DNA of 64,000 nucleotides, from IMG/VR virus record IMGVR_UViG_3300035135_002447; one strand, given 5' to 3'. Made by a program: the position numbers and the translations under genes. Every line of letters starts with the position of its first letter. Position 1 is the stretch's first letter. Below, piece after piece: positions 18,318 to 18,389 of this stretch. The DNA is from an uncultured virus (IMG/VR IMGVR_UViG_3300035135_002447). Lineage: Duplodnaviria; Heunggongvirae; Uroviricota; Caudoviricetes. A model generated the notes under the pieces. It saw only the letters and a list, made by a program, of their open reading frames with translations, had not been told where the DNA came from and ran no database searches.

Positions 18318-18389
18318 TTACTTATTCATTACGTACATAGTAACTTCAAAGCCAAATCTCATTTCTGTAAAAGTTGGTTTAGTCCACAT
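18318..18389 (-). CDS. pqqA: Pyrroloquinoline quinone precursor peptide PqqA (23 aa)
   Basis: Hand translation [23 protein letters not shown] has the W-x-K-P leader and the invariant E-x3-Y core; SD GAAAGGAG upstream. Confidence 0.93.
   Translation of the reverse strand: [23 protein letters not shown]

Follow-up and report, generated by a model that had tools for sequence, protein, structure and literature searches.

Why a phage should encode PqqA, the precursor peptide of PQQ, apart from the enzymes that act on it is the question raised by positions 18318..18389 of the window, the term used here for the whole 64,000-nucleotide stretch of viral DNA that was analysed. The Glu and Tyr residues of the PqqA ExxxY motif are cross-linked by PqqE/PqqD, and the peptide is consumed stoichiometrically. 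An earlier note on this DNA had taken the locus for a stand-alone phage pqqA, possibly late-expressed, that either feeds or competes with PQQ synthesis in a perhaps methylotrophic host.

Identity and genomic setting of the pqqA ORF

The ORF (18318..18389) lies on the minus strand and comprises 23 codons and a stop, with the ATG at 18389-18387 and the TAA at 18320-18318. The encoded peptide matched both Pfam PF08042 (PqqA; 44.6 bits, cut-off 21.1, E 1.3e-11) and NCBIfam TIGR02107 (46.9 bits, cut-off 20, E 1.6e-12), the latter being a model of the equivalog type. The earlier note had named the lack of a PqqA HMM hit as one result that would overturn its identification of 18318..18389; two models match, each above its cut-off, and the identification stands. 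The E-x3-Y pair corresponds to Glu15 and Tyr19 of the 23 residues, and the W-x-x-P of the N-terminal leader, the part of PqqA bound by PqqD, is present as W2 and P5. Judged by its sequence, the ORF is a member of the PqqA family and not a chance ORF. It is preceded by a Shine-Dalgarno sequence, GAAAGGAGAA (18394..18403, minus strand), that stops 4 nt ahead of the ATG, its AGGAG core (18400..18396) stopping 6 nt ahead, and which is also found in related viral loci (L090/L325, L110/L118). The GC content of pqqA is 30.6%, near that of the window (34.7%).

Structural genes identified in the window with PHROGs and Pfam encode a gp23-type capsid protein, a scaffold, a prohead protease, a gp20-type portal and baseplate proteins; a gp46/47-like nuclease is also encoded, and the same searches placed a gp55-like late sigma factor at 34700-35521. 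The gp23-type major capsid protein gene (19238..20413, minus strand) lies 850 nt upstream of pqqA and is the gene after which the variable island with pqqA begins, with tail and baseplate genes downstream. At the DNA level this capsid gene is approximately 70% identical to those of PA5oct- and Rak2-type jumbo phages. For related records of 98-210 kb, IMG/VR gives a completeness of 28-60%, suggesting a genome of roughly 350 kb. Gene content and similarity identify the window as the structural region of a T4-like jumbo phage. Contigs from one DNA run tile 17400-19334 with no more than one difference, and pqqA sits inside a true viral genome between viral genes. Three very large ORFs were also observed: one of 5363 codons (44676-60767, plus strand), almost without a family match, and two of 2410 codons (7867-15099) and 1975 codons (1805-7732) on the minus strand, both matching baseplate-wedge PHROGs and the former also containing FG-GAP repeats. 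A SegE-like GIY-YIG homing endonuclease gene (31173-31622, minus strand) lies between the replication/repair and structural genes.

Among the 36 ORFs or ORF pieces of the window, Pfam searches found no PqqB, PqqC, PqqD or PqqE, no radical SAM protein and no PQQ-dependent dehydrogenase, in agreement with the initial view of a phage PqqA standing alone, with no pqqB-E in the window. No pqqBCDE operon adjoins pqqA in the window, but most of the Methylophilaceae copies retrieved are likewise orphans. The PqqC, PqqD and PQQ_2 families were not found in five related records of 98-210 kb, in searches for which controls were positive in 6, 4 and 11 of 14 genomes, respectively. Methanol dehydrogenase was found neither in the window nor in the five related records, and there is no tRNA or tmRNA in the window. 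These absences bear on the possibility that a phage or host enzyme outside the PQQ pathway modifies the peptide into another molecule. Radical SAM genes are described in the Baikal viral population VP_139 in the published account (PMC7678222), and the view of the present phage genome is confined to the window. However, no radical SAM or other RiPP enzyme is encoded in the window, none appeared among the larger clusters of neighbouring genes within 2.5 kb of the viral pqqA copies considered below, and the sequence is indistinguishable from that of a true PqqA; a different product is considered very unlikely.

The locus might also be a remnant of integration, pqqA serving as attP core for a temperate phage whose insertion site is host pqqA, and small siphovirus-type phages do carry pqqA near recombination genes, often antisense to their neighbours. 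The window, however, comes from a T4-like jumbo phage that encodes a late sigma factor, no integrase was found in the 36 ORFs scanned, and the whole ORF is kept together with its ribosome-binding site, all differences within it from the related locus L090 being synonymous. An origin of this kind is exceedingly improbable for the window.

Viral pqqA copies, selection and host

A search of IMG/VR with a degenerate DNA pattern for FGFEVTMY matched at least 120 contigs. In all 120 IMG/VR matches listed the ORF was intact and of PqqA type, with no frameshifts or stops seen, and the commonest viral forms among the matches listed were the two commonest host peptides. A second pattern match in one related record (G004) did not lie within a short PqqA-like ORF and was set aside. 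Clustering of neighbouring ORFs within 2.5 kb of viral and bacterial copies placed viral pqqA beside YqaJ (31 loci), DUF3310 (19), Sak (17), capsid protein (11), two groups of cell-wall hydrolases (11 and 10), T4-type clamp loader (9), RegA (9), Hsp20 (9) and ERF (8), a variety indicating that the gene is carried by several unrelated phage types. Clusters of PqqB, PqqC and PqqD adjoined pqqA in none of the viral loci and in 11 bacterial loci, most of the bacterial copies retrieved being orphans. One locus titled Gammaproteobacteria bacterium CCP3-SC1AL1 (L198) has pqqA beside a phage capsid gene, and four of its neighbour clusters are also those of viral loci; this contig is probably phage or prophage.

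When 50,697 GenBank phage records were searched by tblastn, 12 were matched, ten of them cultured methylotroph phages (Venkman, P19250A, MEP301, MEP401, MEP402 and four Melnitz records); an uncultured spring virus was also matched, and two records under the name Acinetobacter phage MD-2021a matched in part. All seven phage copies tested scored above the Pfam cut-off (37-46 bits), including all four from the cultured phages P19250A, Venkman, MEP301 and Melnitz. The cultured methylotroph phages encode intact PqqA ORFs of 23-24 codons with 73-91% identity to the window peptide. They differ from the window phage in that they are siphoviruses and a 141-kb myovirus whose pqqA has other neighbours and no adjoining riboswitch. 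The gene is intact yet unannotated in Venkman, P19250A and MEP301, and in MW202481 and Melnitz the annotation places an ORF over it on the other strand. In Melnitz (MZ577097.1, 2495-2566, plus strand; 37 bits) pqqA lies between two tRNA genes, ahead of baseplate genes and beneath the opposite-strand gp152. The P19250A copy (KX815270.1, 3020-3088, minus strand; 40.3 bits) is intact, which contradicts the statement, in the text of PMC7678222, that this phage encodes none of the reported auxiliary metabolic genes (AMGs). No report of pqqA in cultured methylotroph phages was found in the openly available full-text literature searched, where the papers on OM43 phages mention PQQ solely as an additive of the medium or in work on the hosts.

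Across 106 unique viral sequences (1317 pairs), mean dN was 0.129 and mean dS 0.987, a ratio of 0.13 computed on the 15 codons left unfixed by the search pattern. W2, P5 and R11 were invariant in these 106 sequences, W2 and P5 lying outside the pattern; the E and Y of E-x3-Y were also invariant but are fixed by it. Comparison of the window with L090, a locus also fetched as L325, gave 81% identity over a 440-nt region, within which all differences inside pqqA were synonymous. The dN/dS of approximately 0.13 indicates that viral pqqA copies are under purifying selection.

The bacterial distribution of the peptide was examined by scanning DNA encoding the 15-residue PqqA ending in one genome per prokaryote species, and at least 123 loci were found. 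Among the 80 matches listed, 70 were titled Methylophilaceae, Methylophilus, Methylotenera, Methylopumilus, Methylobacillus, Methylophilales or OM43, eight carried a higher-rank name only, and two came from one MAG labelled Acidovorax caeni. The near restriction of this ending to Methylophilaceae, among the matches listed, makes a host from this family well supported; the resemblance of the ending to Methylophilaceae PqqA, which the earlier note had put forward with a bacterial comparison as the check, is confirmed. Methylophilaceae genomes are described by Beck et al. 2014 (PMC4109929) as having 3-12 pqqA copies and a single pqqBCDE set, in keeping with the many orphan copies retrieved. Of the 133 bacterial copies among the matches listed, 74 encode one peptide and 31 another. 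The orphan chromosomal copies of Methylophilaceae are of the same length as the window copy, and the window peptide shares all of residues 8-23 with the commonest Methylophilaceae peptides among the matches listed. The window copy differs from them in being carried by a phage and in having Thr-Phe at positions 6-7, a pair present in none of the 133 bacterial matches listed, among which no peptide is identical to that of the window. Nearest-neighbour nucleotide identity, considered as a guide to viral or bacterial origin, was 93% for the best viral copy and 90% for the best bacterial copy over 72 nt and cannot discriminate between them.

These comparisons also bear on whether the phage peptide feeds host PQQ synthesis or competes with it, both of which had been suggested. 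As a decoy, the peptide would bind PqqD/PqqE and be processed poorly, throttling PQQ synthesis or diverting the radical SAM machinery. The leader is where such an activity might be sought, its Thr-Phe being unlike all 133 bacterial copies listed, and binding of the window peptide by host PqqD is for this reason assumed. Phe or Tyr nevertheless occurs at position 7 in 11 of the 106 unique viral sequences, most viral copies among the matches listed have the same sequence as host peptides, residues 8-23 of the window peptide (core and tail) match the host consensus, and no mechanism for poor processing is visible. A decoy therefore has little probability, and feeding is favoured over competition because residues 8-23 are those of the commonest host peptide among the matches listed.

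The variable island downstream of the capsid gene

The surroundings of pqqA were compared in 80 IMG/VR loci with capsid proteins 82-92% identical to that of the window. The distance from the capsid gene to the next conserved gene was 142-2333 nt with a median of 682 nt (43 loci) and is 1303 nt in the window; at least 500 nt are present there in 56 of the 80 loci. The contents vary among relatives and include the CHAP gene, riboswitches, small ORFs, pqqA and small RNAs. The stretch that follows the capsid gene (window 17935-19238; L271-L350) is a hypervariable cargo island, and pqqA occurs in it in 3 of the 80 loci.

All features of the window island described here are on the minus strand. A hairpin (19212..19187) follows the capsid gene and is succeeded by the upstream neighbour of the pqqA cassette, a cargo gene encoding a CHAP/NlpC-P60 peptidase (18625..19197) that occurs after the capsid gene in only one of the 80 capsid relatives (L272). 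The listed GTG start of the CHAP gene overlaps the capsid terminator hairpin, and the protein would have a lipoprotein-like N-terminus (MKYFILVLIGIFVITAC...) if an internal ATG were the start. Synteny was also sought through this neighbour, and none of 21 relatives of the CHAP gene was syntenic or had pqqA or the riboswitch within 4 kb; the approach is uninformative because the CHAP gene is itself cargo. A late-promoter-like TATAAATA (18612..18619), one of four copies in the window, lies 4 nt ahead of a glutamine riboswitch aptamer (RF01739; 18560..18607; 49.2 bits, gathering 35, E 2.9e-09) that has one substitution relative to L090 and is approximately 170 nt upstream of pqqA. Directly after the riboswitch is a conserved 28-codon ORF (MDNFTLWCYKRLFRQHRINKINLIIARF; 18451..18537) with its own Shine-Dalgarno sequence, for which no Pfam family was matched, followed by the conserved box GTGTTTAAATA (18410..18420), a putative late promoter of pqqA that holds TAAATA (18415..18410). 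No terminator-like site was found between TATAAATA and pqqA.

Just after the pqqA stop is a sigma-70-like promoter, TTGACA-16-TATATT (18264..18291; 11/12 match, with TG), which by its position is predicted to drive the next unit and not pqqA. It is followed by a manA-like RNA (RF01745; 18086..18256; 43.9 bits, below the gathering score of 55.2, E 1.7e-09) and an intrinsic-terminator-like hairpin (18051..18080), the first downstream of pqqA on its strand. The promoter and manA-like RNA (18086-18291), ending at the hairpin, resemble a stand-alone small RNA unit. Beyond them lies a conserved 130-codon ORF (17543-17935) with a freshwater-2 RNA (RF02980; 17936..18018; 75.2 bits, gathering 49.9) as its leader; this ORF, which has no assigned function, is kept after the capsid gene in many relatives.

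The L325 island contains the same cassette as the window, with a terminator directly 3' of pqqA, so that promoter, riboswitch, small ORF and pqqA form a unit there with a terminator on either side. L293 and L294, which share one sequence, carry pqqA on the other strand, immediately behind the capsid terminator. Six of the 80 loci have a glutamine riboswitch after the capsid gene. Two loci without pqqA at this place, L274 and L311, have the riboswitch and 28-codon ORF followed directly by the same unit of sigma-70-like promoter and manA-like RNA, an arrangement suggesting that box, ribosome-binding site and pqqA were inserted together, as a piece of approximately 130 nt, into an older cassette. 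Box, Shine-Dalgarno sequence and pqqA recur together in three related viral contigs and constitute a mobile unit.

An island so variable in length (142-2333 nt in 43 relatives), in which pqqA adjoins the capsid gene in no more than 3 of 80 relatives, is also where a fragment of host DNA, captured recently and of no use to the phage, might be expected to lodge. Several findings argue against such a neutral passenger, however: the dN/dS of approximately 0.13 over 106 unique viral sequences, the purely synonymous pqqA differences from L090, the intact state of all 120 IMG/VR matches listed, a GC content (30.6%) near the 34.7% of the window, and the phage-specific box and Shine-Dalgarno sequence that accompany pqqA in both orientations. 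A passenger is highly improbable.

The small ORF after the riboswitch has 28 codons and the same motif in L325, L274 and L311, and 32 codons in L276 and Melnitz; examples are MDNFTLWCYKRL... (28 codons), MDRFTFWCF... and, from Melnitz, MTLYQQWCYLK... (32 codons). The gap between riboswitch and small basic ORF is approximately 27-31 nt in the window, L274, L276, L311, L325 and L248 (Melnitz). In L287 and L338 the glutamine riboswitch after the capsid gene is followed by a second kind of ORF, of 50 codons (MNYRDFELARKK...RPRCEKNILSDDPRLQKI). From aptamer to start codon the Melnitz riboswitch is 85.5% identical to that of the window over approximately 75 nt, and each phage has, after the aptamer, a short basic ORF containing a WCY motif. 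In Melnitz, however, the riboswitch is beside a tmRNA and a late-transcription coactivator gene, approximately 30 kb from pqqA, whereas in the window the distance is approximately 170 nt. In the published description the Melnitz riboswitch is proposed to act on the upstream tmRNA (Buchholz et al. 2022, PMC9004378). Since a small ORF lies between the riboswitch and the coactivator gene, the Melnitz riboswitch may instead control the small peptide. A blastn match to the Melnitz 'SsrA' feature, considered as a possible tmRNA, proved to be the glutamine riboswitch, with which that annotation overlaps at its end.

The TAAATA box and strong Shine-Dalgarno sequence 5' of pqqA had been remarked on at the outset, and the gene had been called possibly late-expressed. 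In the sense orientation TAAATA lies no more than 60 nt upstream of 9 of 35 genes, the mean for shuffled upstream segments being 3.3 (sd 1.7), and 11 of 2000 shuffles reached nine genes (p ~0.006). Fourteen of the 60 TAAATA copies in the window fall in its 2503 intergenic bases. The distance from box to start is 20 nt for pqqA and 19, 19, 23 and 24 nt for four structural genes. Among the 124 viral and 129 bacterial copies listed, GTTTAAATA precedes pqqA only in the four jumbo-phage loci (window, L090, L110 and L118) and in none of the bacterial copies. Enrichment is limited to the shorter TAAATA in the sense orientation upstream of genes: exact TATAAATA, which we take to be the T4 late-promoter consensus, is not enriched window-wide (4 copies, 11.3 expected), and neither is exact TTTAAATA (13 copies, 15.7 expected). 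The motif statistics and the conservation with pqqA in three related contigs, on which the assignment rests, make the box a putative late promoter of pqqA itself, of gp55 type, and late transcription of the gene a reasonable but indirect reading. Part of the stretch is contained in 20 of 24 public runs listed, of which three salt-marsh RNA-library runs and the one DNA run were compared. RNA-library contigs had word depths of 6.35, 6.62 and 1.7 over 18336-18439 and of thousands over the capsid gene, depths that are not rankable; the contigs were taken at 90% likeness or more and mix many related phages, and RNA libraries can hold DNA.

Phage PqqA in the infected cell

The reading that we consider probable is that pqqA in the window is a functional AMG that resupplies a consumed PQQ precursor during infection. 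The gene would be transcribed from its own late-type box and the 23-residue peptide translated from its own ribosome-binding site in an infected Methylophilaceae cell; host PqqD/PqqE would bind it and cross-link Glu15 to Tyr19, and PqqF/B/C would finish the cross-linked peptide into PQQ, the cofactor with which the periplasmic methanol dehydrogenases (XoxF/MxaF) supply the energy metabolism of the cell. As the only part of the pathway that is consumed, with one peptide used per PQQ, PqqA would be the one component that the phage needs to carry, the enzymes being those of the host. Phage pqqA would in this way keep up the precursor supply once host transcription declines and so sustain methanol dehydrogenase. 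The multiple host pqqA copies described beside a single pqqBCDE set (PMC4109929) add an argument from dosage. Against the AMG reading, late expression is unusual for a gene that sustains metabolism through infection, and the occurrence of pqqA next to the capsid gene in just 3 of 80 close capsid relatives indicates that it is dispensable for the phage lineage.

Transcripts that start at a late promoter ahead of the glutamine riboswitch and read through the riboswitch and 28-codon ORF may also reach pqqA. An extension of the AMG reading that we put forward tentatively, and regard as doubtful, would make pqqA the last gene of a late unit composed of TATAAATA, the glutamine riboswitch, the 28-codon basic peptide and pqqA (closed by a terminator in L325), with precursor resupply coupled to the nitrogen status of the infected cell and with box, ribosome-binding site and pqqA forming a self-contained mobile module of approximately 110 nt that would move from one phage genome to another in either orientation.

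A precedent for the AMG reading may be seen in cyanophage psbA, which encodes the D1 protein, a fast-turnover part of a host energy system carried by the phage. By analogy, in both cases the phage would carry only the consumed or fast-turnover part and the host would supply the rest, although D1 is a protein subunit of another pathway and PqqA a substrate destroyed to make a cofactor. A closer parallel comes from Lake Baikal, where T4-like viral populations with a GC content of 35% were assigned to Methylophilaceae hosts (Coutinho et al. 2020, Microbiome 8:163, PMC7678222). As described there, VP_266 encodes PqqA and a methanol dehydrogenase, and a PQQ-boosting AMG role was proposed. By published description rather than by sequence, VP_266 and the window phage are alike in being T4-like, in their predicted Methylophilaceae host, in GC content (approximately 35% and 34.7%) and in having a stand-alone PqqA, and they differ in that methanol dehydrogenase was found neither in the window nor in the five related records; the riboswitch-small ORF-pqqA cassette and the promoter box do not figure in the description of VP_266 (PMC7678222). 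Viral pqqA, pqqD and pqqE are elsewhere counted, in the text of a 2026 report, among phosphorus-cycling AMGs (PMC13188868). The kind of gene studied here was thus already published in 2020 and is common, and the idea is confirmed and extended, not discovered. What is new is the late-promoter box that accompanies pqqA, the insertion behind a glutamine-riboswitch unit, the variable post-capsid island and the annotation corrections.

Those corrections concern P19250A, stated to be without pqqA, and Melnitz, with its antisense ORF over the gene. A 72-nt pqqA, missed or placed on the wrong strand by gene callers, provides a host-family marker for an uncultured jumbo phage. Phages of Methylophilaceae, whose hosts include OM43, LD28, Methylotenera and relatives, repeatedly carry the sole consumable of PQQ synthesis, and this recurrence points to precursor supply as a bottleneck of methanol oxidation in these abundant aquatic bacteria when infected.
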